From assembly GCA_011042725.1 (NCBI GenBank), contig DQWD01000338.1, forward strand, positions 1 through 57,465: a DNA stretch of 57,465 nucleotides. Direction: 5' to 3'. A program made the position numbers and the translations under genes. This stretch comes from Candidatus Aminicenantes bacterium (GTDB taxonomy: Bacteria > Acidobacteriota > Aminicenantia > Aminicenantales > Aminicenantaceae). The notes beneath the pieces are model-generated. The model did not search any database, was not told where the DNA came from, and saw only the letters and a list, made by a program, of their open reading frames with translations. Below, piece after piece: positions 32,337 through 43,937 of the stretch; within the stretch, counting starts at the first letter, position 1, and the number at the start of each line of letters is the position of its first letter.

Positions 32337-34463
32337 ATGGCTCAACAACCTGAAATTGCTCAAATCTCAAGAGGGGATTTAGATTTTGTCTACTCTATCC
32401 TCCAAACCACGACCGAACCCCTCTCCCTTAAAGAACTAACCACCAAGTTAGGTTTTGAAAAAACGGCAACTGAACTCAATCAACCGCTGAAAAAATATGA
32501 TCCCAACTGCCGTTATGAAGTGGGAGATCTAATTTACAAAGAATATAATGAGCCCATCTTGGTTTCCAGCAAAAATACCGAAATGTTTACGGGGGCCGTC
32601 GTCCTGCGCGTGGTTAATAAGATCCCCTATGAAAGTTTCCGCTGTGAAATGCTGGAAGTCGACTACAACGGAGGAGGCCTTTTCCGTCGCCACATCGACT
32701 ACATGAAAAAGACCAAAACTCAAGTACTGCTTCCCAGCAACATGGATCATCAGGAGCGCGAGCCCGAACTAATTCCTCCTGAACAAGATCCTCGCCGGCA
32801 CGAAATCCCCATTACCGAGAAAGATCTAAAAAAGCTAGCCAAAAACCTTGAGAAAGCCCTTCATCATGACCAGCGTTTCTTTGGGTGGGGCGACAAGTGG
32901 GCTTTAACTGAAAAACAAATAAATATAGCCGAAGAAAAAATCCAAGAAATCGAACAATATATCCTTGATAAAAACCATTCCGTGCCCACCGAAGAGCTTA
33001 TTCACAACGTCTTGGACATCCCTTTCAACTCGCAAGAATATGGATTAGCTTGTATGAGTCTAAACGCCTTACTCAGTAAGAAATACCGGAAAAAGTTTGT
33101 TTATACTTTTCCTGAAAAATGGGGAAAATGGATCCACAAAGAGATTCTGGAAAGGATGACCAAAAATATTCCCCTTTTAGCTCCCCCGATTCCTTCTCCC
33201 CCTGAAATTGAAAAACAAAAATTATCGAGTTCGATACTTGAATTCCCTCTCAAAATATATCTTGGTTGGCGCGACATTCTCTCCGGAGGGGTACGCCTCC
33301 CCTTAGCCTTGAAGAAAGAGCTTTCATCGCTTGAATACATCCTTGAAGATCCTGAAGAAGAGAAGGAATATTCAGTTTTCTATTTCTCTTCTTGCCATGC
33401 CTTTCTTGGTCTCCAAGACATTTTCGAGCAATTTCACGTGCCCCAGGGAGCCAGCTTAACTCTGGAACAACGCTCCAAAACAAGATTCCGTTTTTGGTTA
33501 AAAACATCTAAGAAAAAAATCTCTTATCCTCGCCTGACTTACGACTCAGAAACCGATAAGTTTCAAAAAACAGACGAAGAGTTTTTCTCCTATGCCCTCC
33601 CCAATAAAATAATTCACATCGACGAAGAAACATTGGAGCACTTACTAAAACTATATCCCCAACGAGAAGTCAATGATTTACGAGAGTTACTCATTCTTAT
33701 TTATAAAGAATTTAGCCCCGAAGAAGAAAGGGTTCTCCACTACTTAAAAGCTTTCCACCTCGCGGATTTCCTCCGGCGAACTACCCAAGAAGCCGTCGAA
33801 GCCACCCTTCAATCTGCTCCCGAATTTGCCGAGTCAGAAAAAAGAAAGGGAGTCTTCATTTACCATGAAAAGGTCAAAACGGAAGAAGAGCTTACTGAGG
33901 AAGCGGCGCGCGTCGAAAAACCTGCAGCCGAAGGCCTGTCCTTATCCGAAACCCTGATCGCTCAAATTCTAGAAGAAGAGAGAGCAGCCCAAGAGCAACA
34001 GCCAGAAATCCCTTCTCCTCCCTTAGAAGCCCAAGAGCCTTCGCCGACCCCAGAAATAGTCTCTCCTCCAGAGGAAAAACCCGCGACCGAAGAACAACCC
34101 TTAACCCCTCCCGAGATCAAACAACCCCCCAGTCCAGAAAAAGAAAAACCAGCCAAAAAATCTCTCAAGAAAAAGAAACACAAAGGCCGCCTAGAACCCG
34201 AAAGCGGACCACGAAGAAGAAGGGGAGAGAAAAAATTTATCGAAGAAAAAATCGAATTAGAAGAATTTGAACAAGAAGCCCTGATTGCCACCAAGGCTAA
34301 GGAAGACCAGGAAGAAGTTCTCCCCGCCCCCAAAGCAGAAAAAGAAAAGAAAAAAGAAGAAGTTAAAGCTTTTGTTGGCCAAGCGGCTGGTTTTGGGGGA
34401 ATCTTTGCTGAAAAATTAAAATCTGCCCTTGAAGAAAAGAAAAAAACGAAAGATAAAAAGTAA
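32337..34463 (+). CDS. Hypothetical 708-aa protein with a globular N-terminal part and a Glu/Pro/Lys-rich low-complexity tail
   Basis: Long open frame with normal codon style; no enzyme motif recognised. Confidence 0.85.
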   Translation: MAQQPEIAQISRGDLDFVYSILQTTTEPLSLKELTTKLGFEKTATELNQPLKKYDPNCRYEVGDLIYKEYNEPILVSSKNTEMFTGAVVLRVVNKIPYESFRCEMLEVDYNGGGLFRRHIDYMKKTKTQVLLPSNMDHQEREPELIPPEQDPRRHEIPITEKDLKKLAKNLEKALHHDQRFFGWGDKWALTEKQINIAEEKIQEIEQYILDKNHSVPTEELIHNVLDIPFNSQEYGLACMSLNALLSKKYRKKFVYTFPEKWGKWIHKEILERMTKNIPLLAPPIPSPPEIEKQKLSSSILEFPLKIYLGWRDILSGGVRLPLALKKELSSLEYILEDPEEEKEYSVFYFSSCHAFLGLQDIFEQFHVPQGASLTLEQRSKTRFRFWLKTSKKKISYPRLTYDSETDKFQKTDEEFFSYALPNKIIHIDEETLEHLLKLYPQREVNDLRELLILIYKEFSPEEERVLHYLKAFHLADFLRRTTQEAVEATLQSAPEFAESEKRKGVFIYHEKVKTEEELTEEAARVEKPAAEGLSLSETLIAQILEEERAAQEQQPEIPSPPLEAQEPSPTPEIVSPPEEKPATEEQPLTPPEIKQPPSPEKEKPAKKSLKKKKHKGRLEPESGPRRRRGEKKFIEEKIELEEFEQEALIATKAKEDQEEVLPAPKAEKEKKKEEVKAFVGQAAGFGGIFAEKLKSALEEKKKTKDKK

Positions 34464-34522: not shown

Positions 34523-35689
34523 ATGATCAGGAAGCAAGACGAGGGATTTGATATCATCATCATTGGAGGGGGAATAGTCGGGCTAAGTCTGGCCTACTAT
34601 TTAGCCGCTAAAAGTGACTTAAGACTGGCCCTTTTAGAGAAAGATCTCCTCGCCCAAGCTTCAACTGGCCTCAGTGTAGGGGGGATTCGACAGCAATTTT
34701 CCCATCCCGCTAACATTCGCCTTTCCCAACATTCATTACATCTTCTAAATATTTTACGCTACCAACTCGGTAATCAAGAATCATTCCTGATTCATCAGGT
34801 CGGGTATTTATTTCTGGTTCAAAGCGATAATGTTTGGTCTACCTTTTTAGAAAACGTGGCTCTCCAACAGAACCTTCAAGTTCCAGTGGAAGTTCTCTCT
34901 CCCGCCCAGATAAAAAAGCAATGGCCCTTTTTAAGGACTGACGATCTGGCGGGAGGCACTTTTTGTTCGGCCGATGGTTATACAGATCCTTATCAAGTGG
35001 CCATGGTTTACGCCCGGGGTTGCCGCCAACAAAAAGTGGTTATCTTGGAACAGACCCCAGTTGAAAAGATAGAAGTCGAAGCCCAAAGAGTGCAAGCCGT
35101 AATTACGCCCCAAGGCCGTTTGTCAGCCTCTCTAGTCATCAATGCGGCCGGAGCCTGGGCAGGAGAGGTGGCCGCTTTGGCTGGAATCAAACTGCCTATT
35201 ACTCCTCTTCGACGGCAGGTTTTTGTCACTCATCCTTTTCGCTTGGGACAACAGCCCCTTCCCTTAATTATTGATTTTGAAAACCATTTCTACTTTCGAG
35301 AAGAGGGACTAGGTTATTTATTGGGATTGAGCGACCCGGCTGAATCCCCTGGGTTTAAATCCGGCATTGAACTGAGTCTGCTCGAAAGATTAACGGAGAT
35401 CGCTACTCATCGTGTCCCGACCTTGGCGCAAGCCTCAATTGCTCGCGGCTGGTCAGGTCTCTACGCGATGACTCCCGATGAAAATCCTATCCTTGGACCT
35501 CTACCCGAGGTGGAAGGTTTCTGGGTTGCCAGCGGCTTCTCGGGACATGGTTTTCAGCATGCCCCCGCGGTTGGGGATATCTTAAGTGATCTTATCCTTT
35601 ACGGTGAAACTAATTTCGACCTTGGTCCTTATCGATACCAAAGATTCCAAAACTCAACCTCCTCCAAGGGAGAAGAAAGGACGGTCTGA
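34523..35689 (+). CDS. FAD-dependent oxidoreductase, DAO/sarcosine-oxidase-beta family
   Basis: GGGIVG Rossmann motif, ASTGLSVGGIR, GLYAMTPDENPILG and GFSGHGF motifs. Confidence 0.9.
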   Translation: MIRKQDEGFDIIIIGGGIVGLSLAYYLAAKSDLRLALLEKDLLAQASTGLSVGGIRQQFSHPANIRLSQHSLHLLNILRYQLGNQESFLIHQVGYLFLVQSDNVWSTFLENVALQQNLQVPVEVLSPAQIKKQWPFLRTDDLAGGTFCSADGYTDPYQVAMVYARGCRQQKVVILEQTPVEKIEVEAQRVQAVITPQGRLSASLVINAAGAWAGEVAALAGIKLPITPLRRQVFVTHPFRLGQQPLPLIIDFENHFYFREEGLGYLLGLSDPAESPGFKSGIELSLLERLTEIATHRVPTLAQASIARGWSGLYAMTPDENPILGPLPEVEGFWVASGFSGHGFQHAPAVGDILSDLILYGETNFDLGPYRYQRFQNSTSSKGEERTV

Positions 35690-36681
35690 TGAAAGTAAGA
35701 GTTATCACCAAAGCCGATATTCAAGCTAATCTGGCAATGAGCGAAGTCATCCCGATGGTGAAAAAAGCCTATCGGGCCCTGGCTACCCAACAGGTGATCA
35801 TGCCCCCCCGCCTTCAAATTCCTGTCGAGGAAAAAGAAGGGGTGACGCTTTTTATGCCTGCCTACCTGAAACAAGAAAACGCCTTAGGGTCCAAGATTGT
35901 TTCGGTCTTCCCTCATAATGCGCAATTTAAGCGGCCAACCATAAATGCCGTGTTTTTTCTCATCAGCTCGGAGACCGGCGTTCCCTTAGCTCTCATGGAG
36001 GCTTCCTGGCTCACTGCCTTACGGACAGGAGCTGCTTCAGGAGTGGCCACCGAGTATTTGGCTCGAACAGAGGCTAAAATTGCCGCTATTTTTGGCGCGG
36101 GGGTTCAAGGACGAACTCAGTTACTGGCCGTCAGTCACGTTCAGCCATTAACCAAGGTGTGGGTCTATGATCCCAATCGCGAAGCGGCCCGCAATTTTGT
36201 GGAAGAGATGAAGACTTGGGGCTCCTCTGTGCCTTCAGAGATACTGGTGGCCTCCTCGCCGCAAGAAGCTATAAAAGAAGCCGATATTATCTGCACTGCG
36301 ACCACGGCCACCCGCCCTGTTTTTAACGGTGCTGATGTTAAGCCCGGCACCCATATCAACGCTATTGGCTCCTTTACTCCCGAGATGCAGGAGCTTCCTG
36401 AAGATATCATCACCAAGGCCAAAATTGTGGTTGATTCTCGTCCAGCCTGTCTAGAAGAAGCCGGCGATATCATTATTCCGTGGCGCCAAGGATTAATTAC
36501 TCCTCAAGATATTTATGGCGAAATTGGCGAAATCGTCCTCGGATCTCTGCCAGGGCGGGTAGACGATGAAGAAATAACTGTATTTAAATCCGTCGGGCTG
36601 GCTATTCAGGATGTCATCGTGGCCCAACTTATCCTGGAGAAGGCCCAACAGCACAACTTTGGTCAGGAAGTGGAACTATGA
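35689..36681 (+). CDS. Ornithine cyclodeaminase/mu-crystallin family (probable Delta1-pyrroline-2-carboxylate reductase)
   Basis: LTALRTGAASG, GAGVQG, GTHINAIGS and FKSVGLAIQD motifs. Confidence 0.88.
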   Translation: MKVRVITKADIQANLAMSEVIPMVKKAYRALATQQVIMPPRLQIPVEEKEGVTLFMPAYLKQENALGSKIVSVFPHNAQFKRPTINAVFFLISSETGVPLALMEASWLTALRTGAASGVATEYLARTEAKIAAIFGAGVQGRTQLLAVSHVQPLTKVWVYDPNREAARNFVEEMKTWGSSVPSEILVASSPQEAIKEADIICTATTATRPVFNGADVKPGTHINAIGSFTPEMQELPEDIITKAKIVVDSRPACLEEAGDIIIPWRQGLITPQDIYGEIGEIVLGSLPGRVDDEEITVFKSVGLAIQDVIVAQLILEKAQQHNFGQEVEL

Positions 36682-37733
36682 GGAACAAAGACCTAAAGAT
36701 AGCCGCAATTCCCTCCTATTTTCCTCCCTCAGAATGGAAGCGTTTTAAAGCCATCGAAGCCCATACCGCCGGTGAACCATTTCGAGTCATCACCTCTGGG
36801 TTCCCCCCTCTTAAAGGATCCACTATCATGGCCAAACGCCGGTATGTGCAGCAAAATTTTGATCATTGGCGCCGAGCCTTAATGTGGGAACCTCGAGGCC
36901 ACGCGGATATGTATGGTTGTCTCCTGACTGAACCGGAACGATCAGATAGTGATTTGGGCGTTATTTTCCTTCACAATGAAGGTTATAGCACTATGTGTGG
37001 CCATGGTATTATCGCTTTAACCAAAGTCGTCCTGGAAGGAGGGATAATCGTTAAAGAAGGCTCTCAGCCTTGTCTTAAAATCGATACCCCGGCGGGACAA
37101 GTCATTGCTCGCGCCCGACGCGAAGGAGAGAGAGTGGTTAAAGTATCTTTTCAGAATGTTCCTTCTTTTGTTGTTGCTCTCGACGAAAAAGTTAACTTAC
37201 CCTCCGTAGGTCTTATCCATTATGACCTGGCTTTCGGAGGTGCCTTCTATGCTTTCATTCGAGCCGAAGATCTGGGATTAAAATTAATTCCGTCTGAATT
37301 CAAAACAATCATCGAGTGGGGACAACGCCTTAAAAAACTAATCGCCTCTCATCCGTCCCTTCGCCACCCCATAAGTAACGATTTAAGTTTCCTTTACGGG
37401 GTGATTTTTATCGGCCCGCCACAAGATCCCACCCACCACAGCCGCAATGTGTGTGTCTTTGCCGAAGGAGAAGTCGACCGCAGTCCCACTGGGACTGGCG
37501 TCTCGGCTCGAGCAGCCATCCACTATACCCGCGGGGAAATTGCCCTTCATCAAGACTTTACCATTGAAAGCCTTATCAACACCTGTTTTACCGGTCGGGT
37601 GATCAAAAACCTCCAGTATGGTCCTTACCAAGCAGTTATCCCTGAAGTGGAAGGAGAAGCTTTTATTACCGGCCAAAGTGAATTTTACCTCGATCCCCAG
37701 GATCCTCTGTCAACCGGCTTTTTCCTTCGTTAA
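36678..37733 (+). CDS. Proline racemase family with Cys/Thr catalytic pair; probable trans-3-hydroxy-L-proline dehydratase
   Basis: EAHTAGEPFR, EPRGHADMYG, YSTMCGHG (Cys) and DRSPTGTG (Thr where racemases have Cys). Confidence 0.85.
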   Translation: MRNKDLKIAAIPSYFPPSEWKRFKAIEAHTAGEPFRVITSGFPPLKGSTIMAKRRYVQQNFDHWRRALMWEPRGHADMYGCLLTEPERSDSDLGVIFLHNEGYSTMCGHGIIALTKVVLEGGIIVKEGSQPCLKIDTPAGQVIARARREGERVVKVSFQNVPSFVVALDEKVNLPSVGLIHYDLAFGGAFYAFIRAEDLGLKLIPSEFKTIIEWGQRLKKLIASHPSLRHPISNDLSFLYGVIFIGPPQDPTHHSRNVCVFAEGEVDRSPTGTGVSARAAIHYTRGEIALHQDFTIESLINTCFTGRVIKNLQYGPYQAVIPEVEGEAFITGQSEFYLDPQDPLSTGFFLR

Positions 37734-37736
37734 CTC

Positions 37737-38852
37737 TTAATCCGGAAGAATCTCGCGGACCGAAGGAGTTTTGCGGCGAGTTACACCGATTTGATCCAGC
37801 AATTCAAGCAGCGGGATAGCGTATTTGCGCGACAATCCCGTTAGCTGTTTAAACTCAGTAATGGTCATTTCTTTTTGGCCCGAGGCCCTGATCTTCTTAA
37901 TCAGCTCTTCTAACCATTGGTAATGAAGATAATAACCATCTTTGCTCTTGATAATTTTTTGCTGATCAATCAGCATCGTCAAAAGCATGTTTAACTTTCT
38001 CCGAGGCAACCCTGTTCTTTGCTGGAGTTTATCGACTGATAGGGATAATAAATCTCCCTTGAGAATGCTAGTTTCCATCTGCTTCAATATCTCAATTTCT
38101 TGCGCTGTTAATTGAGGTTGAAACTCTGGCAAATAAAAATAATCTTCTCTCCGACGAAGAAGGCCTTTGGCGGTTAAGCGGTTGGCTAAGTAGGAGGTGG
38201 TCCGGGCGGAAATACCCAAATTTTTTCGCATCTTGGAGATAGTCATCCCCAGATCGTCTGGCTGCTGCTGGTGATATTTGGTTAACCGGCGCAGGATTTT
38301 CTGTTCTAAAAAATTTAGAATCTGTGGATGATAAATTAGATAAGGATGATGGTTCAAGATTTTCCATCGTCCTTCTCCTTCTCCTTCCTCAAGAATTAGC
38401 TTGAGCTTTTTTAAGGGAAGGGCAAAAAAGAATTTTATTTCTGACTCTCCTAATCCTTGGCTTCCTTTTTTAAGAGCTAATCCCTCGAGGGCCTCCTTTA
38501 AAGAGCCACTCATAACTTGGAGCCAGGCCAAGTGCTTGGTCATTCTTGGGAGTGAATAAGAAAATAGGGCTGGCCCTAAGATCCGCAGGTTGATTGTCTT
38601 TTTAAATCGATTCGCCAGGTAAAATTCCACCTCCACTTCATCATTCCACTTAAGTGAAATTGCCGGGTTGACAATTAAGCGTAAATATATGTTTTTGTCA
38701 ATTAAATCCTGCTGATTTTGGGAATAGACAATTACCTCCACTGAATAAGTATTTCTCCGGTGCCGGAGAACTCCCTTAATTATCTTCGACGCCGACCCCA
38801 AGGGCTGGGAGGCAACGGCTTCGAAACGATGAAAGAGATTAGACTTAGCCAT
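37737..38852 (-). CDS. SelB C-terminal-half protein (domain III-like barrel plus winged helices, no GTPase domain)
   Basis: The C-terminus FKQLTGLSRKYAIPLLELLDQIGVTRR matches the SelB WH4 SECIS-binding signature. There is no P-loop, and the protein is only 371 aa. Confidence 0.8.
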   Translation of the reverse strand: MAKSNLFHRFEAVASQPLGSASKIIKGVLRHRRNTYSVEVIVYSQNQQDLIDKNIYLRLIVNPAISLKWNDEVEVEFYLANRFKKTINLRILGPALFSYSLPRMTKHLAWLQVMSGSLKEALEGLALKKGSQGLGESEIKFFFALPLKKLKLILEEGEGEGRWKILNHHPYLIYHPQILNFLEQKILRRLTKYHQQQPDDLGMTISKMRKNLGISARTTSYLANRLTAKGLLRRREDYFYLPEFQPQLTAQEIEILKQMETSILKGDLLSLSVDKLQQRTGLPRRKLNMLLTMLIDQQKIIKSKDGYYLHYQWLEELIKKIRASGQKEMTITEFKQLTGLSRKYAIPLLELLDQIGVTRRKTPSVREILPD

Positions 38853-40959
38853 TCTTGTGCTTTCGCTTTTTCTCTTTTAAGGGTAAAGCCAAGACCATTT
38901 TTTGTCGAAAAGGATCGACTAAGGCAATAACCACTTTTATTATATCACCTAATTCATAAACGGGACTGCCTTGGCGCCGCAACACAGCTTTTTCTTTCCA
39001 TCTGACCCGGACTGGGTGAGGGATTTCTTCATAAGGCAAAAACCCGTCGACGAAATATTCATTAAGTTCCACAATTAGACCATCTGGGATAATATCAACA
39101 ATCATGCCCTCTATTTCCTCACCTAACTTGTCTTTAAGTAAGCGGAATATCCGCCAGCGCAGAAGATCTCGCTCCGCCTCTTCTGCTCGCCTTTCTTTCT
39201 CTGAGCAATGATCGGCTATTTCCGAAAGGGGAAGGGGGAGAGGAGGTTGGTGGGCCAACGCTCTTTTCAAAAGGCGATGGACGACCAGGTCCGGGTAGCG
39301 GCGGATAGGAGAGGTAAAATGAGTATAAAGATCTTTAGCCAGGCCAAAATGACCTCTATTCTGCTCGGAATAAACCGCCAGTTTCAGACTGCGGAGGATT
39401 TGAACTTGGACAAACTTCTCTTCGGGTCGACTTTTCACCTCCTCCAACACCCGTTGTAAATCTTGCGAGCGAATCCTTTTGGCGGGAGGCAGGGAAATGT
39501 TGAGATGAGCCAAAATTTTTTTTAACTTATCCATACTTTCTACCGAGGGACTAGGATGGATCCGATAGAGGAGGGGGTATTTTTTCTGGGTCAAAAAAGT
39601 GGCTACTGCCTCATTGGCCGCCAACATAAAATCTTCAATCAAATGATGAGCTTCATTGGTCTCGAAACCGATCACGGCCACTGGCCCCCCCTGTCCGTAA
39701 ATCAACTCCGGTTCGATAAGATCAAAATCCAAACTCCCTTCAGCTAGCCGGGCTTTCCGGAGCAACCGGGCACATTGGCGCATGTCCATCAACATGGGCC
39801 TCAAGGTCTTGTATTTTTGGGTTTCTTCCGGGTCTCCTTGAAAGATTTTATAGACTGAATTATAAGTTAAGCGGGCGGCGGTACGAATGATAGAAGGGAA
39901 AAAATCCGCCTCTTTTATCCTGCCCTGGGAATCAATCCGGAGAATGACCGACATGGTTAATTTATCTTCTTGCGGACGCAAACTGCAGAGCCAATTGGAG
40001 AGCCGTTCGGGCAACATAGGCAGGACTTCTTCGCTGAAATAAACACTAGTCCCCCGTTGATAAGCTTCCTTATCTAATTCGCTGCCTAAGGGAACATAAT
40101 AAGAAACATCTGCGATATGCACTCCCAACAGGTAATCATGTTTATCCCGTTTTAAACTCACGGCATCATCAAAATCTCGGGCTGTTTCCCCATCAATGGT
40201 CACCGTCATCCAGTGACGCAAATCACGCCTTTTCTTCAACTCGGCTGAAGACACCACCGCCGGAATCTTAGCCACTTCGGCCCGGACGGAACGAGGAAAA
40301 GATGTTCTTAAACTATAACGCTCAATAATCACCCGGCGATCAACTCCCGGGTCATCAGGAAAACCGAAAATTTCTTGAAGCTCGCGGGTTTCCCGGTCAA
40401 CAGTAATCAGCATTCCTTCTTGGGGTTTTTCGCCTCGGCTCAACTTAATCGGCCAAGGTTCTTTAACCACCATGTCCACCGGCTGGATAAAGGGTTGGCC
40501 TCCCCGAAGTTGAAATTCTCCGATGAGACGGGATCGTTTCCTCTCGACAATGCCCAGAATCTTGCCTTCCGGCCGGCCACGAGAACCTCTCCTCCAAACC
40601 ATGGCCTCGACTACATCCCCCTCCACTATTCCTTGGGCAAAGCGAGCGGGAATAAAAACATCGCTCCTTTTCTTGTTCTTAGGGATGACAAACCCATATC
40701 CTTTGCTTGAGGTGGTAAAGCGACCTTGCACTACCCTTACTCGAGGATTGAGGAAATATCTCCGTTTCAAACGCATTATCACCTTTTCTCGTTCGAGTTG
40801 GAGCAGAACTTGCCTCAGGTAAGGCCGGTCCTTCGAACCCAAACCCAGTTCACGACTGAGTCGAGTCAAACTAACCCCTTGACCTCGGTTCTGGTTAAAG
40901 ACGCTCAGAAGGCGACGATAAAAGTGAAGATCCGGTTTTTTTTTAGGAATTGAAGTCAT
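38845..40959 (-). CDS. rnr: Ribonuclease R
   Basis: N-terminal HTH, cold-shock domains (KGYGFV), catalytic TIDGETARDFDDA, IEDFMLAANE, HFTSPIRRYPDL and an S1 domain. Confidence 0.95.
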   Translation of the reverse strand: MTSIPKKKPDLHFYRRLLSVFNQNRGQGVSLTRLSRELGLGSKDRPYLRQVLLQLEREKVIMRLKRRYFLNPRVRVVQGRFTTSSKGYGFVIPKNKKRSDVFIPARFAQGIVEGDVVEAMVWRRGSRGRPEGKILGIVERKRSRLIGEFQLRGGQPFIQPVDMVVKEPWPIKLSRGEKPQEGMLITVDRETRELQEIFGFPDDPGVDRRVIIERYSLRTSFPRSVRAEVAKIPAVVSSAELKKRRDLRHWMTVTIDGETARDFDDAVSLKRDKHDYLLGVHIADVSYYVPLGSELDKEAYQRGTSVYFSEEVLPMLPERLSNWLCSLRPQEDKLTMSVILRIDSQGRIKEADFFPSIIRTAARLTYNSVYKIFQGDPEETQKYKTLRPMLMDMRQCARLLRKARLAEGSLDFDLIEPELIYGQGGPVAVIGFETNEAHHLIEDFMLAANEAVATFLTQKKYPLLYRIHPSPSVESMDKLKKILAHLNISLPPAKRIRSQDLQRVLEEVKSRPEEKFVQVQILRSLKLAVYSEQNRGHFGLAKDLYTHFTSPIRRYPDLVVHRLLKRALAHQPPLPLPLSEIADHCSEKERRAEEAERDLLRWRIFRLLKDKLGEEIEGMIVDIIPDGLIVELNEYFVDGFLPYEEIPHPVRVRWKEKAVLRRQGSPVYELGDIIKVVIALVDPFRQKMVLALPLKEKKRKHKNG

Positions 40960-41478
40960 TTTTATTTGATTTGTTCTCCTCGAAACATAGGTAATGGGAT
41001 GCTGAAAAAATTTTAATTTTTAATCTCGACTTCATTTATAACAGATTCAATACCAAGAGAAAAGTCAATGGTCAAAATTTATTATCCCCCACCCTAAAAG
41101 AGGCATGGTATCCGAGCCTAATTAAAAACATTGCCAGCCCCATAATTGGCTAAAAATAGCTTTAGTTTCAACCCGCTACCCGGAGGCAAGAAAACCATCT
41201 TGACCTTCGAGACGAAGAAAAAAAATGACTTTCGCTCCCAGGCAAAGTAAGCAGTATTTACTTCCAGGAAATATTTATTAATCGCCATAGGGATTATCTT
41301 CTGGCAGATGGAGGCCAAAATACAACTTGAAAAAATCAGTCTAATGAGTAATCATCTACAGGATGACAAAATCCGGGAAGGCTCCGGTTTCCAAGGATTA
41401 ACTACCAAGAGGCTAGTCATTATCGAGAAAAATGGAGAAAAATATTCACCCTCACCAGCCCAGAAAAGAGGTCTGAAG

Positions 41479-42114
41479 ATGGCCCCACCCCCATGCTCCC
41501 TGGCCTTATTAGCCTCTCTTCTCAAATTCTTGAAGAACTCCTTTGATGACCATTACCTCTTGCGTGAAGTCCCTCAAGTGCGCAGTCAGATCCAAGCTTC
41601 TAAATTCATCATCCGTCATGATGTCCAACGGAATTTACCTTGGGCCCTAACCCTGGCCCAAAAAGAAGCAGAGGCAGGCCTTCGCAGCAGCTTTTTAGTC
41701 GATCTGAATTCGCCTGATTTAGGGGTTCACGAGAGGGAGGCCAAAACCATTTTGCATCAAATTAACGACTTAGAGCATGAGGTCGGTTTGCTGCTTCCTT
41801 TGCCTGAATATTGCCCCCCGGCCAAAACCAGACCAACTAATTTTATCCCCCACCTCTCTATTCTGATTCACCAAATGGAAGAATTATTAGAACAGCCTAT
41901 TTTTTCCCTGGCTTTTCCCGACGAGTCCCTAATGTATCCCGAACAATCCTATTTCCTGGCAACCAAAATATGTGCTTCCTCAGCTTTTTTAAGCCAGTGG
42001 CTGCTTTCTGACCGCCTCCATAACTTGCATCCCCAAGTTTGGGAGAGAGAATTCTCTTCTCCTCCCGACAAAATCCTCCAACTAGTCTTGCACCCTGAAC
42101 TTTGGAGAGATTAA
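41479..42114 (+). CDS. Degenerate polysaccharide-deacetylase-like protein
   Basis: IIRHDVQ..ALTLAQKEAEAGLRSSFLV..LEHEVGLL resembles the LRHDVD..G.RSTYF..GHEIGLH family. ATG 41479 (AAGAGG RBS) is preferred over 41308. Confidence 0.55.
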   Translation: MAPPPCSLALLASLLKFLKNSFDDHYLLREVPQVRSQIQASKFIIRHDVQRNLPWALTLAQKEAEAGLRSSFLVDLNSPDLGVHEREAKTILHQINDLEHEVGLLLPLPEYCPPAKTRPTNFIPHLSILIHQMEELLEQPIFSLAFPDESLMYPEQSYFLATKICASSAFLSQWLLSDRLHNLHPQVWEREFSSPPDKILQLVLHPELWRD

Positions 42115-42157
42115 GCTGGCTCAAGGAGCCGTCCGTACTCGCTTCTCTTTAATATAA

Positions 42158-42501
42158 GAGTTTGTCCCCAAGGGAAGGGAAACAAAATCGAACGAAAGGC
42201 GAAGGAGAAGGTCGGAGCCACATTGAAGATTTAGCCTTCCGGAACCGTCCCTCAAAGGAACCCGACCGCCTCGGGTGCCGAGCGCCTATTGAGCCCGGCT
42301 CGTTTAAAGTTTTGAAACTCATATTAACTTTGAAACTCATCTTATCAGAGAATAAAGTCCAAAGATTCGAATTGATCGGGCGCAGCTTCGCCGGCGCCGA
42401 GAAGGGCCGTGAAGGAATGGCCTTAAAAATCTCGACCGAAGCGGAGACATTTTCCTTCGCCTTAACGTAGTAACTCATTCCCCTCACTTGGGGACAAAAG
42501 C
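42158..42501. mobile_element. MITE (non-autonomous IS derivative), 344 bp
   Basis: Terminal inverted repeats GAGTTTGTCCCCAAGGGAAGGGAA vs GCTTTTGTCCCCAAGTGAGGGGAA (20/24 identical), flanked by a perfect 8-bp direct repeat TAATATAA at 42150-42157 and 42502-42509; no transposase. Confidence 0.8.
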
Positions 42502-43148
42502 TAATATAAATAAGGTGAACAATAAGGAATCTTAAATTTATGCCGGAGATACTTAGCCAAAGCCCGGTCAACCAGTTCCTTCATTTTCTGTTTGGATTTA
42601 ATGGATAAAGTAGCTTGCAGTTCGGCCATCACCTGCTCCCGCTCCTCGGCTGTGGCTAACATCACCAGTTGACGATCAATCTTCTCGTCGATCTCTTCCA
42701 ATCCGGCTTCATCCACTTCGTCTTGGTTTAAAACAGCCAGGGCTTCTCGAAAATAGGGGCCTAAGGTGGTTAATCGTTTTTGATGGGGATGCACAAAAGG
42801 GGCAATAATCTGGCGTAGTTTTACTGGCGATCCCCCAGTTTTCTCGGACGACAATCCCCGGCGGCTCTTTCCCAATTGTCTCTCTCGATAGGCTTGGTAA
42901 GCCGCCAACACAAAACGCTCCACCTTGACCAGGCTAAAAGAGCGCCGCGGCTTCTTTTTAACTTGCCAGTAATCCACGGCCCGTTGCAATCCATCTAAGA
43001 CAACCCGCAGCGGAATTTCTTGGCTCAACCAACGGTCGATAAGGTAGATTTCGTGAGGGGTCAAGAGAAGGCTGCTCCGGCGCTGAGTAAGAACAAAGCG
43101 AGCAATTGTCTGGAAGTACTTCTCCCGGTTCGTCCTCTCCGCCGCCAT
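42501..43148 (-). CDS. Conserved hypothetical protein (helical; possible DnaD-like N-terminal module)
   Basis: YFQTI..F...R...LLLTP.E..LI..W...IPL..VL.GL pattern; last gene of the birA-coaX run. Confidence 0.7.
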   Translation of the reverse strand: MAAERTNREKYFQTIARFVLTQRRSSLLLTPHEIYLIDRWLSQEIPLRVVLDGLQRAVDYWQVKKKPRRSFSLVKVERFVLAAYQAYRERQLGKSRRGLSSEKTGGSPVKLRQIIAPFVHPHQKRLTTLGPYFREALAVLNQDEVDEAGLEEIDEKIDRQLVMLATAEEREQVMAELQATLSIKSKQKMKELVDRALAKYLRHKFKIPYCSPYLY

Positions 43149-43169
43149 GGCTCTCGTCCCTGATTCCCC

Positions 43170-43937
43170 TCACCGCCGATTTTTTTCATATAACAACCGC
43201 AATCCATCCAAGACAAGATCTGGTTCGTGGTAAACATTTGCTTTTTCTTGCTTAGAGAAAAACTCCGCCCATCCTCCGGTCATGACGACTTTGGTGGTGG
43301 GGCCCAAGACCTGTTTCATCTCTCTTAATATGCCTTCAACTAGCCCTTGATACCCATAGAAGAGACCGGCTTGCATACTCCCTTCAGTTGTTTTGCCAAT
43401 GACAGAGGCTGGCTGGCGAATTTCAATGCGAGGTAATTTAGCCGTTTTCTCATATAGAGCCTGCGCCGCCATTTCAATACCCGGAGCAATAGCCCCTCCC
43501 AAATAATCTCCTTGAGGTGAGATGGCATCAAAGGTCGTGGCTGTCCCAAAATCCACCACCACGAGGGGTCCCCCATACTTATGGAAGGCAGCCACAGCGG
43601 CCACCACTCGATCAGCCCCCACCTCTTGAGGATTCTCATAAAGAATAGCCATGCCTGTTTTTAGACCGGGGCCCACTACCAGAGCTCTCTTTGAAAATAG
43701 CTGGCGAGTGACCTGCTGAAAAATGGGGGTAAGAGGGGGGACAACACTGGAAATAATAGCCCCTTCAATATCTTCTTCTTTTATCTTGGCCCATGTTATT
43801 AAATCCAGAAGAATTAGCGCATATTCATCAGCTGTTTGCTCGGAATCACTATGAATGCGCCATTTCTTTAGCAATTTATCTTGTTGAAAAACCCCTAAAC
43901 TAATACTGGTATTCCCAATGTCAATAGCTAAAATCAT
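43170..43937 (-). CDS. coaX: Type III pantothenate kinase
   Basis: LAIDIGNT, ISSVVP, EVGADR, VDFGTATT and GGAIAPG motifs. Confidence 0.96.
   Translation of the reverse strand: MILAIDIGNTSISLGVFQQDKLLKKWRIHSDSEQTADEYALILLDLITWAKIKEEDIEGAIISSVVPPLTPIFQQVTRQLFSKRALVVGPGLKTGMAILYENPQEVGADRVVAAVAAFHKYGGPLVVVDFGTATTFDAISPQGDYLGGAIAPGIEMAAQALYEKTAKLPRIEIRQPASVIGKTTEGSMQAGLFYGYQGLVEGILREMKQVLGPTTKVVMTGGWAEFFSKQEKANVYHEPDLVLDGLRLLYEKNRR

Follow-up and report, generated by a model that had tools for sequence, protein, structure and literature searches.

Bacterial SelB (TIGR00475) is represented by the structures 4ZU9 of A. aeolicus and 5LZB of E. coli on the ribosome, and by 1LVA, 2UWM and 1WSU, C-terminal fragments of Moorella SelB with SECIS. 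The isolated domain 4 of SelB binds SECIS: laboratory fragments (Moorella SelB 377-634, E. coli domain 4b; PDB 1LVA, 1WSU, 2PJP) bind SECIS RNA alone, and the selAB leader carries a SECIS-like element to which E. coli SelB also binds. In the eukaryotic and archaeal EFSec plus SBP2 system, SECIS-type RNA binding resides on a chain separate from the GTPase, and SBP2 uses an L7Ae-type domain instead of SelB winged helices. In Firmicutes, smpB lies next to rnr, and SmpB-tmRNA recruits RNase R or is protected from it.

Here we analyze a gene that resembles each of these systems in part. It lies on the minus strand of a 57,465-nt contig of Candidatus Aminicenantes bacterium (GCA_011042725.1, DQWD01000338.1; this whole stretch of DNA is hereafter the window), immediately downstream of rnr, and encodes a GTPase-less SelB paralogue, the short form SelB-C (Table 1). 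SelB-C is like bacterial SelB from domain III through the four winged helices (WH1-4), and its WH4 signature matches canonical SelB at all conserved positions; it differs in having neither G domain nor domain II, in forming a separate clade, in scoring below the family threshold (38.4 bits against a TIGR00475 cut-off of 242.25), in occurring without selA, selD and selC, and in being encoded with rnr and not with sel genes. With the laboratory fragments it shares a stand-alone winged-helix arm, stable and RNA-binding-competent in those fragments without the GTPase, but they are constructs, whereas the SelB-C gene occurs naturally and has been conserved by selection throughout a bacterial class. 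As in EFSec plus SBP2, the (here predicted) SECIS-type RNA binding is on a chain without the GTPase; Pfam, however, gave no match to an SBP2-type L7Ae/K-turn-binding domain in SelB-C, and the window's genome has neither a partner GTPase nor a Sec pathway. Like SmpB, SelB-C is a small protein, predicted to bind RNA and to be co-transcribed with RNase R as a possible adaptor or protector, although SmpB is of unrelated fold and origin; tmRNA is present elsewhere in the window's genome. Our literature search found no paper on GTPase-less SelB in Aminicenantes or on the 'SelB C-terminal domain-containing protein', the name that NCBI records give to the short paralogue of Aminicenantia.

Table 1. 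Features of the rnr/SelB-C locus (positions of the window)
Feature	Positions	Strand	Basis
SelB-C gene	37737..38852	-	371 aa; domain III, spacer and WH1-4
Domain III-type six-stranded beta-barrel, residues 7-94	38571..38834	-	AF2 strands, hhalign, Foldseek
N-C spacer helices and WH1, residues 95-175	38328..38570	-	AF2 model, hhalign
WH2, residues 176-245	38118..38327	-	Pfam SelB-wing_2 (residues 187-241, E 2.7e-07); AF2; hhalign
WH3, residues 246-310	37923..38117	-	1LVA alignment; AF2; WH3-4 against 1wsu_A (Foldseek, TM 0.88, rmsd 2.0 A)
WH4, residues 311-368	37749..37922	-	Pfam SelB-wing_3 (residues 326-361, E 1.6e-16); SECIS-hairpin-binding signature intact, GLSRKYAIPLLELLDQIGVTRR at residues 339-360
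Overlap of rnr stop (TAA) and SelB-C start (ATG), ATGGCTAA, 8 nt	38845..38852	-	
rnr, complete 704-aa RNase R	38845..40959	-	TIGR02063 over cut-off (638.7 bits vs 597.85; model positions 6-709 of 711); Pfam
rnr leader	40974..41047	-	-10-like block and RBS, both conserved with same-genus loci
RBS of rnr leader, GAGGAGAA	40981..40974	-	
-10-like block of rnr leader, AATCTGTTATAAATGAA	41047..41031	-	

The first-pass annotation had described the 371-aa reading frame, which is indeed present in the window, as domain III plus four winged helices ending in the SelB SECIS-hairpin-binding signature, and Pfam, the AF2 model and hhalign agree on this architecture. The Moorella fragment 1LVA aligns with residues 131-361 (E 1.4e-11). 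In the AF2 model (pLDDT 89.2, pTM 0.76) a six-stranded barrel is followed by four winged helices; Foldseek ranks full-length SelB structures highest, 5lzb_z (E 1e-16, aligned over 375 columns) and 4zu9 (over 370 columns), and pairs the barrel with domain 3 of EF-Tu. Aligned by hhalign with 30 full-length SelB (probability 100, E 1.6e-55), SelB-C is colinear with columns 279-658 of the 662-column SelB profile, a span that begins at domain III and runs to the C-terminus. Pfam found no EF-Tu-like GTP-binding domain I (GTP_EFTU), the hhalign alignment is confined to these columns, and neither method detected a domain II beta-barrel (GTP_EFTU_D2); one homologue has Pfam PF25461 (Beta-barrel_SelB). 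Without G domain and domain II there is no GTP- or aminoacyl-binding part, and a protein of this predicted composition cannot hydrolyze GTP or deliver tRNA.

The upstream DNA is occupied by rnr, as had also been claimed, and the completeness of that gene leaves no space for an upstream SelB part. The encoded RNase R comprises an N-terminal HTH, CSD1/CSD2, RNB at residues 244-569 (372 bits), S1 at residues 609-691 and a very short basic tail, with CSD2, OB_RNB and S1 all present. The notion that SelB-C makes up for this short tail was rejected because RNase R frames without SelB-C are hardly longer: whole open-frame lengths, which are not tail lengths, are 709-746 aa in other Acidobacteriota without SelB-C and 693-747 aa in Aminicenantia. 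Conservation of the -10-like block and RBS at same-genus loci suggests that the rnr/SelB-C pair is served by its own promoter, so far a predicted one.

Relatives throughout the class carry the same short form, and a private truncation of SelB is thereby ruled out. Short SelB paralogues of about 255-470 aa without a G domain constitute a class in Aminicenantia into which the window protein fits; its closest homologues measure 344-395 aa and score 185-800 bits, full-length SelB at most 86 bits. The short form occurs in 114 of 121 Aminicenantia genomes (50 of 51 genera) and full-length SelB in only 21 of the 121; about 100 keep the short gene with full-length SelB absent, and nine were noted to have both, one of them with a canonical selD-selB operon at a site separate from the short gene. 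In the phylogenetic tree, a single branch (support 100/99) separates all 20 short forms from full-length SelB, and the full-length proteins of Aminicenantia (a 100/100 clade) cluster with the latter. As the 20 short forms all lie beyond this one branch, the tree points to a single origin, and by its phylogeny and distribution SelB-C is an ancient GTPase-less SelB paralogue that typifies Aminicenantia, a class of the GTDB phylum Acidobacteriota. The relatives form a truncation series, from 470 aa in family f4 (domains II and III plus winged helices, the only short form in which domain II was found) through roughly 360 aa (domain III plus winged helices) to 255-270 aa (winged helices only); the barrel-less proteins keep a 4-nt overlap with rnr.

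Two roles connected with selenocysteine can be weighed against this distribution. If SelB were split, a separate N-terminal GTPase chain would act with SelB-C to insert selenocysteine, as EFSec does with SBP2. That analogy and the colinearity with the C-terminal part of SelB are all that favors such a factor, which the first-pass annotation had proposed. The window's genome (89% complete) has no selA, selB, selB N-terminal part (domains I and II only) or selD over cut-off and no tRNA-Sec, tblastn with the SelD and SelB of a relative found nothing in it, and two other genomes of the genus have no SelB either. Relatives that use selenocysteine possess, alongside the short gene, a complete SelB with its own WH1-4, and the short forms make a separate clade. 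The split factor is thus effectively refuted, and we assign it next to no probability. Since most carriers, the window's genome included, have no Sec machinery, SelB-C probably works independently of selenocysteine. Alternatively, the free arm could bind the SECIS hairpins of selenoprotein mRNAs, tuning or blocking selenocysteine insertion, or could autoregulate sel genes, a reading to which the intact WH4 signature and the presence of canonical SelB and selD in some carriers lend some appeal. As a general function, SECIS competition is excluded by the retention of the short gene in genomes without full-length SelB; in addition, Sec machinery is entirely absent from the window's genome, sel genes were never seen beside the short gene among the loci examined, and decay specific to Sec-less lineages is not the pattern found. 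We regard this competitor role, the part of the earlier hairpin-binding proposal that did not stand, as very improbable.

The other part of that proposal, a repurposed hairpin-binding protein, is favored by the pattern of conservation along SelB-C. Mean column conservation climbs from 0.44 in domain III through 0.48-0.61 in the spacer and WH1 to 0.78 in WH4, half of whose columns (29 of 58) reach 90% conservation or more. The WH4 signature (F334, K335, G339, R342, K343, Y344, A345, I346, P347, L348, L349, E350, L352, D353, T358, R359, R360 and R366) consists of residues conserved at 80% or more in 120 canonical SelB and at 90% or more in 118 short forms, and short forms conserve each of the WH4 positions that canonical SelB conserves. 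With all conserved residues of the canonical SECIS-hairpin-binding domain on its WH4 surface, SelB-C has most likely retained SelB-like binding of an RNA stem-loop, as judged from sequence and model. The N-terminal barrel, its least conserved part and missing from some relatives, looks like a decaying vestige, and WH1-4 would form the functional core. For the target hairpin, an Rfam scan of positions 36500-43500 scored at E up to 5 gave chance matches only, and alignment of the rnr leader with same-genus loci revealed no conserved hairpin, only the promoter-like block and RBS.

The same winged helices could have been re-used on DNA, making SelB-C a transcription factor for the rnr operon or other genes. 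The protein is basic (pI 9.9), other proteins bind DNA through tandem winged helices (Foldseek matched TFIIIC and Pol III), PADLOC returned weak Csa3/AbiEi matches, and WH2 has weak sub-threshold matches of MarR/IclR type. Every match to an HTH family is nevertheless below its cut-off (Pfam gathering scores: MarR_2 23.3 vs 27, MarR 19.4 vs 24.6), and WH4, the most strongly constrained domain, retains the RNA-binding SelB signature residue for residue, where a change of ligand should have remodeled it. We therefore consider a DNA-binding role improbable. A defence system was likewise discarded, as the PADLOC matches were weak and of generic winged-helix type only.

Linkage to rnr, which had been put forward for checking in relatives, holds in 79 of 80 species loci, with rnr upstream on the same strand, directly in 77 and with pgi between in two; the remaining locus begins at a contig end, so that 79 loci are informative. 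At these 79 junctions the genes overlap by 4 nt in 31 and by 1 nt in 3. The order birA-coaX-215aa-rnr-SelB-C is conserved as a block, in which rnr/SelB-C is the most conserved junction (79/79 informative loci): by comparison, the 215-aa gene lies before rnr in 55 of 63 loci, and SelB-C is followed by a gene of roughly 700 aa in 43 of 71, and the rnr/SelB-C junction outlasts rearrangement of both flanks. The conserved 215-aa protein could be assigned to no family and matched nothing in the PDB by sequence, nor any fold.

Predicted co-transcription and frequent translational coupling make a partnership with RNase R the most likely role of SelB-C, on the basis of gene linkage and phyletic pattern. 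Our best, if tentative, reading is that SelB-C is an exapted SECIS-type hairpin-binding protein that works with or against RNase R, as its RNA-hairpin-binding partner. As an adaptor, it would guide RNase R to RNAs that carry hairpins or to the mRNA entrance of the ribosome; as a protector, it would shield a particular hairpin RNA from the exonuclease.

This partnership has to be set against an account in which SelB-C is an independent RNA-binding protein, for example one that regulates post-transcriptionally or that associates with the ribosome through the 30S-shoulder and mRNA-entrance arm of SelB, and rnr is its neighbor by inherited synteny only. Because the whole block is syntenic in the same order, adjacency to RNase R may partly be inertia. 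The order rnr-pgi-SelB-C occurs in families f4, f5, f7 and f75, and in family f74 the short gene lies with pgi and rnr is elsewhere. The only pgi/SelB-C junction examined overlaps by 4 nt, and pgi has no known RNA role; its interposition in several families means that tight coupling is no proof of partnership. A pgi-selB arrangement with full-length selB in other Acidobacteriota further suggests a locus history older than the rnr link. Two large protein searches revealed no RNase R::SelB-C fusion: a word-index search with the concatenate, in which the SelB-C part of candidates of 591-1881 aa was scored, returned only canonical SelB at no more than 86 bits, and when 1.84 billion representatives were searched exhaustively with a profile, no protein scoring above 200 bits exceeded 371 aa. 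Separately, one genome contains a single PGI::SelB-C fused ORF, and a family mate has the two genes separate.

Family f6 bears on both accounts. RNase R over cut-off was found in 0 of 22 f6 genomes tested, with control genomes positive in the same search, and a recognizable short gene persists in f6 genomes without RNase R, so that the function of SelB-C is not strictly RNase-R-dependent. The f6 copies are far more diverged (41-92 bits vs 130-540; branch length 1.96), and the short gene was undetected in 6 of 50 f6 genomes vs 1 of 71 elsewhere (Fisher p = 0.019), although these apparent losses could be detection failures caused by divergence. Against an independent protein, the lineage in which RNase R was lost is precisely the one that shows divergence and sporadic loss, and the rnr/SelB-C junction is the best conserved of the block. 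An independent function is a possibility of appreciable weight, while the RNase R adaptor remains the best reading of the earlier proposal by linkage and phyletic pattern. The stronger version of the partnership is rather unlikely: here, the mRNA-hairpin-binding and 30S-docking arm of a translation factor would have been exapted into the RNase R machinery as a dedicated subunit, in a partnership old enough to mark the class, and would steer the exonuclease towards RNAs with hairpins or towards stalled ribosomes, or protect one hairpin RNA from it. Its evolutionary trail would run through loss of domain I, then II, then III, with the gene decaying where RNase R disappeared.

SelB has been regarded as a single-purpose factor that is lost together with the selenocysteine trait. 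The strong selection on its RNA-binding arm across Aminicenantia, mostly in genomes without selenocysteine, implies a second job for the SECIS-type hairpin-binding module, and since SelB-C is small, confidently predicted and easily expressed, the question is directly testable. If the job with RNase R is real, this exoribonuclease, which is near-universal and degrades structured RNA, would have in SelB-C a specificity or protection factor of a new kind, and SelB-C would also provide a clear natural case of the domain-by-domain exaptation of a translation GTPase.

The short protein encoded behind rnr, SelB-C, has no Pfam match to a GTPase or domain II in its 371 residues, and is recognized through SelB-wing_2 (residues 187-241) and SelB-wing_3 (residues 326-361, E 1.6e-16). 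It aligns to positions 400-573 only of TIGR00475 (selB), at 38.4 bits for a cut-off of 242.25, and the C-terminal fragment of Moorella SelB (1LVA) matches residues 131-361 (E 1.4e-11). Profile-profile comparison with 30 full-length SelB sequences (probability 100, E 1.6e-55) aligns SelB-C colinearly with columns 279-658 of the 662-column SelB profile; read on the domain map of A. aeolicus SelB (D3 266-342, spacer 343-361, WHD1-4 362-582; PMC4605307), these columns identify SelB-C as the segment running from domain III to the C-terminus. An AlphaFold2 model based on 47 homologues (pLDDT 89.2, pTM 0.76) predicts a six-stranded barrel at residues 7-94, followed by spacer helices and four winged helices. 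The top PDB matches of this model in Foldseek are full-length SelB (5lzb_z, E 1e-16, 375 columns; 4zu9, 370 columns); WH3-4 superimpose on 1wsu_A (TM 0.88, rmsd 2.0 A), and the barrel by itself resembles EF-Tu domain 3. These results bear out the first-pass annotation, which had described a SelB domain III plus four winged helices with no GTPase, and the structural comparison upholds the winged-helix fold.

Conservation is uneven along the protein (column means of 0.44 for D3, 0.61 for WH1, 0.55 for WH2, 0.64 for WH3 and 0.78 for WH4), with 29 of the 58 WH4 columns conserved at 90% or more. Among 120 canonical SelB and 118 short forms, each WH4 position conserved in 80% or more of the canonical proteins has the identical residue in 90% or more of the short forms (F334, K335, G339, R342-E350, L352, D353, T358-R360 and R366). 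The SECIS-hairpin-binding signature that had been read in the single protein holds across the short family, and these common residues suggest that the short proteins would still bind hairpins in the SECIS-type mode. A role as a DNA-binding regulator appears improbable, and one as a competitor for SECIS elements, which was raised initially, is more improbable still.

Most short forms comprise D3 and WH1-4. A 470-aa form in Aminicenantia family f4 spans SelB columns 189-647 (D2, D3 and WH1-4), and forms of 255-270 aa in several lineages, some overlapping rnr by 4 nt, consist of WH1-4 only. On sequence comparison the relatives form a graded series of N-terminal erosion of SelB, which together with the conservation gradient points to WH1-4 as the functional core; the window's domain III barrel appears vestigial and weakly constrained.

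Searched against 5.8 billion proteins, SelB-C yielded 1508 relatives. The best 120 of these are mostly 344-395 aa long and score 185-800 bits, those with a named source being all Candidatus Aminicenantes; full-length SelB scores at most 86 bits with the same query. Within Aminicenantia, the class of the source organism (phylum Acidobacteriota in GTDB), profile searches detect the short form in 114 of 121 genomes and 50 of 51 genera, so that it is no private truncation among full-length relatives. In Acidobacteriota outside this class nearly all profile matches lie in frames of at least 600 aa, consistent with full-length SelB, and few in short or broken frames. In a maximum-likelihood tree built from the region common to both forms, a single branch (support 100/99) separates all 20 short forms from full-length SelB, and full-length SelB from Aminicenantia form a 100/100 clade among other full-length SelB. 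A single origin is the simplest reading of this tree, which is not proof because it is unrooted. Full-text searches returned no paper on the Aminicenantia short SelB family, which databases name by domain alone (NCBI: 'SelB C-terminal domain-containing protein').

The short protein is independent of the selenocysteine trait. In the genome that contains the window, 2.56 Mb at 89% completeness, neither selB nor selD scores over cut-off, selA was not found, ARAGORN reports no tRNA-Sec, and tblastn with SelD and SelB of a relative returns only generic matches and the short gene itself. Full-length SelB occurs in only 21 of 121 Aminicenantia genomes, and in some, such as G177 and G167, it coexists with the short gene; the G167 protein carries a G domain, D2, D3 and WH4 of its own, and its gene adjoins selD. 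The initial proposal of a split selenocysteine factor accordingly fails: SelB-C complementing a missing SelB half is contradicted by a genome in which these searches detected no Sec genes and by the whole SelB of G167, leaving this reading with a negligible probability. Since Sec genes are undetected here and full SelB stands alongside elsewhere, the short protein is a paralogue in its own right.

At locus L154 (G167, contig C7, 687-4316) a canonical selD-selB operon overlaps by 4 nt with the next gene, which encodes a 165-aa YacP-like NYN-domain (Rae1-type) ribonuclease. In genomes G269, G259 and G285 (locus L155, contig C9, 3155-6226, minus strand) the open frames holding full-length selB reach about 1000 aa, either because the protein is extended at its N-terminus or as an artefact of frames that stay open far upstream; at L155 the GTPase begins near residue 387 of 1023. 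In the window's genome, the first 64 bases of contigs C31 and C238 each match about 20 codons of a translational-GTPase G-domain start. Both may represent EF-Tu genes truncated by the contig ends, as would be expected if a tuf duplication had collapsed in the MAG; the selB-model searches gave no match of EF-Tu strength in this genome.

Features of the window around the short selB gene
Feature	Coordinates	Strand	Remarks
708-aa protein	32337-34463	+	lysine/glutamate-rich tail; no Pfam or NCBIfam family
Proline-racemase-family cluster	34523-37733		three genes, between the 708-aa gene and SelB-C
SelB-C gene	37737..38852	-	371-aa ORF
rnr (RNase R)	38845..40959	-	complete; TIGR02063 638.7 bits, over cut-off, model positions 6-709 of 711
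Inserted segment	40960-42500		about 1.5 kb, between rnr and the 215-aa gene
Orphan 268-aa ORF	41308-42114	+	within the insert; no family, no homologue in related loci
215-aa all-helical protein	42501-43148	-	AF2 model pLDDT 90

As originally described, RNase R is encoded directly upstream of SelB-C, and the end of its gene shares 8 nt with the SelB-C start; the gene is complete, and its TAA falls within ATGGCTAA. A promoter-like block and an RBS seem to belong to the pair itself, and these are kept in same-genus loci despite differing upstream genes. The linkage extends to relatives: among 80 species-representative loci, all from Aminicenantes, 79 carry rnr upstream in the same orientation, and the other one starts at the first base of SelB-C. 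With naive start calls, 31 junctions overlap by 4 nt and three by 1 nt, and 67 lie within 100 nt.

We tentatively favour a role for SelB-C as an RNA stem-loop binder acting with RNase R in RNA metabolism. That it binds RNA independently of RNase R is a serious if doubtful alternative, and it draws on the synteny of the whole neighbourhood. In 55 of 63 related loci the 215-aa gene lies directly upstream of rnr, and in relatives it may share a transcription unit with it (15-nt gap at locus L012); its product has no Pfam or NCBIfam family, no PDB sequence match and no Foldseek match of its model. Homologues of the 708-aa protein (about 690-700 aa) converge on the short gene in 43 of 71 related loci. 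In the window the insert separates the 215-aa gene from rnr, genes that nearly abut in most relatives. The glucose-6-phosphate isomerase gene pgi can also enter the operon, sitting between rnr and SelB-C in two of the 80 loci; the order rnr-pgi-SelB-C occurs in families f4, f5, f7 and f75, and at the one junction examined (L127, genome G109) pgi shares 4 nt with SelB-C. In family f74 the order is pgi-SelB-C and rnr is located elsewhere; in its genome G202 (L123) PGI and short SelB read as a single 889-aa ORF. Because some Acidobacteriota outside Aminicenantia carry a short PGI gene immediately upstream of full-length selB (L133, L134 and L135, in G046, G030 and G060), part of this arrangement is historical. 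Two large protein searches revealed no RNase R::SelB-C fusion, and the window's rnr/SelB-C locus yielded neither a target hairpin nor an Rfam element, nor a conserved structure in the leader.

Family f6 bears on both readings. It retains the short gene, as a solitary one, without RNase R: none of 22 f6 genomes tested (e.g. G058, G121, G238, G270) has a match over cut-off, against 650-680 bits in control genomes, and three hold only an RNB-core protein of about 500 aa. The loss of a near-universal exoribonuclease from an entire family is unusual. The f6 short protein scores 41-92 bits against 130-540 elsewhere and sits on an internal branch 1.96 substitutions per site long, and the gene is undetected in 6 of 50 f6 genomes versus 1 of the 71 others (Fisher p = 0.019), a difference that may be inflated by lower sensitivity to diverged copies. 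That the gene diverges and erodes precisely in the family that has lost RNase R argues against independent action and is the strongest evidence in this analysis that the two are functionally linked.

The architecture, retained WH4 signature, operon structure and phyletic pattern of SelB-C are observed directly, and its partnership with RNase R is proposed from them. SelB-C would use WH4 and WH3 to bind an RNA stem-loop, in the manner of SelB, whose arm is normally located at the ribosomal mRNA entrance. As an adaptor, it would bring RNase R to hairpin-bearing RNAs or to that entrance; as a protector, it would shield a specific hairpin RNA.
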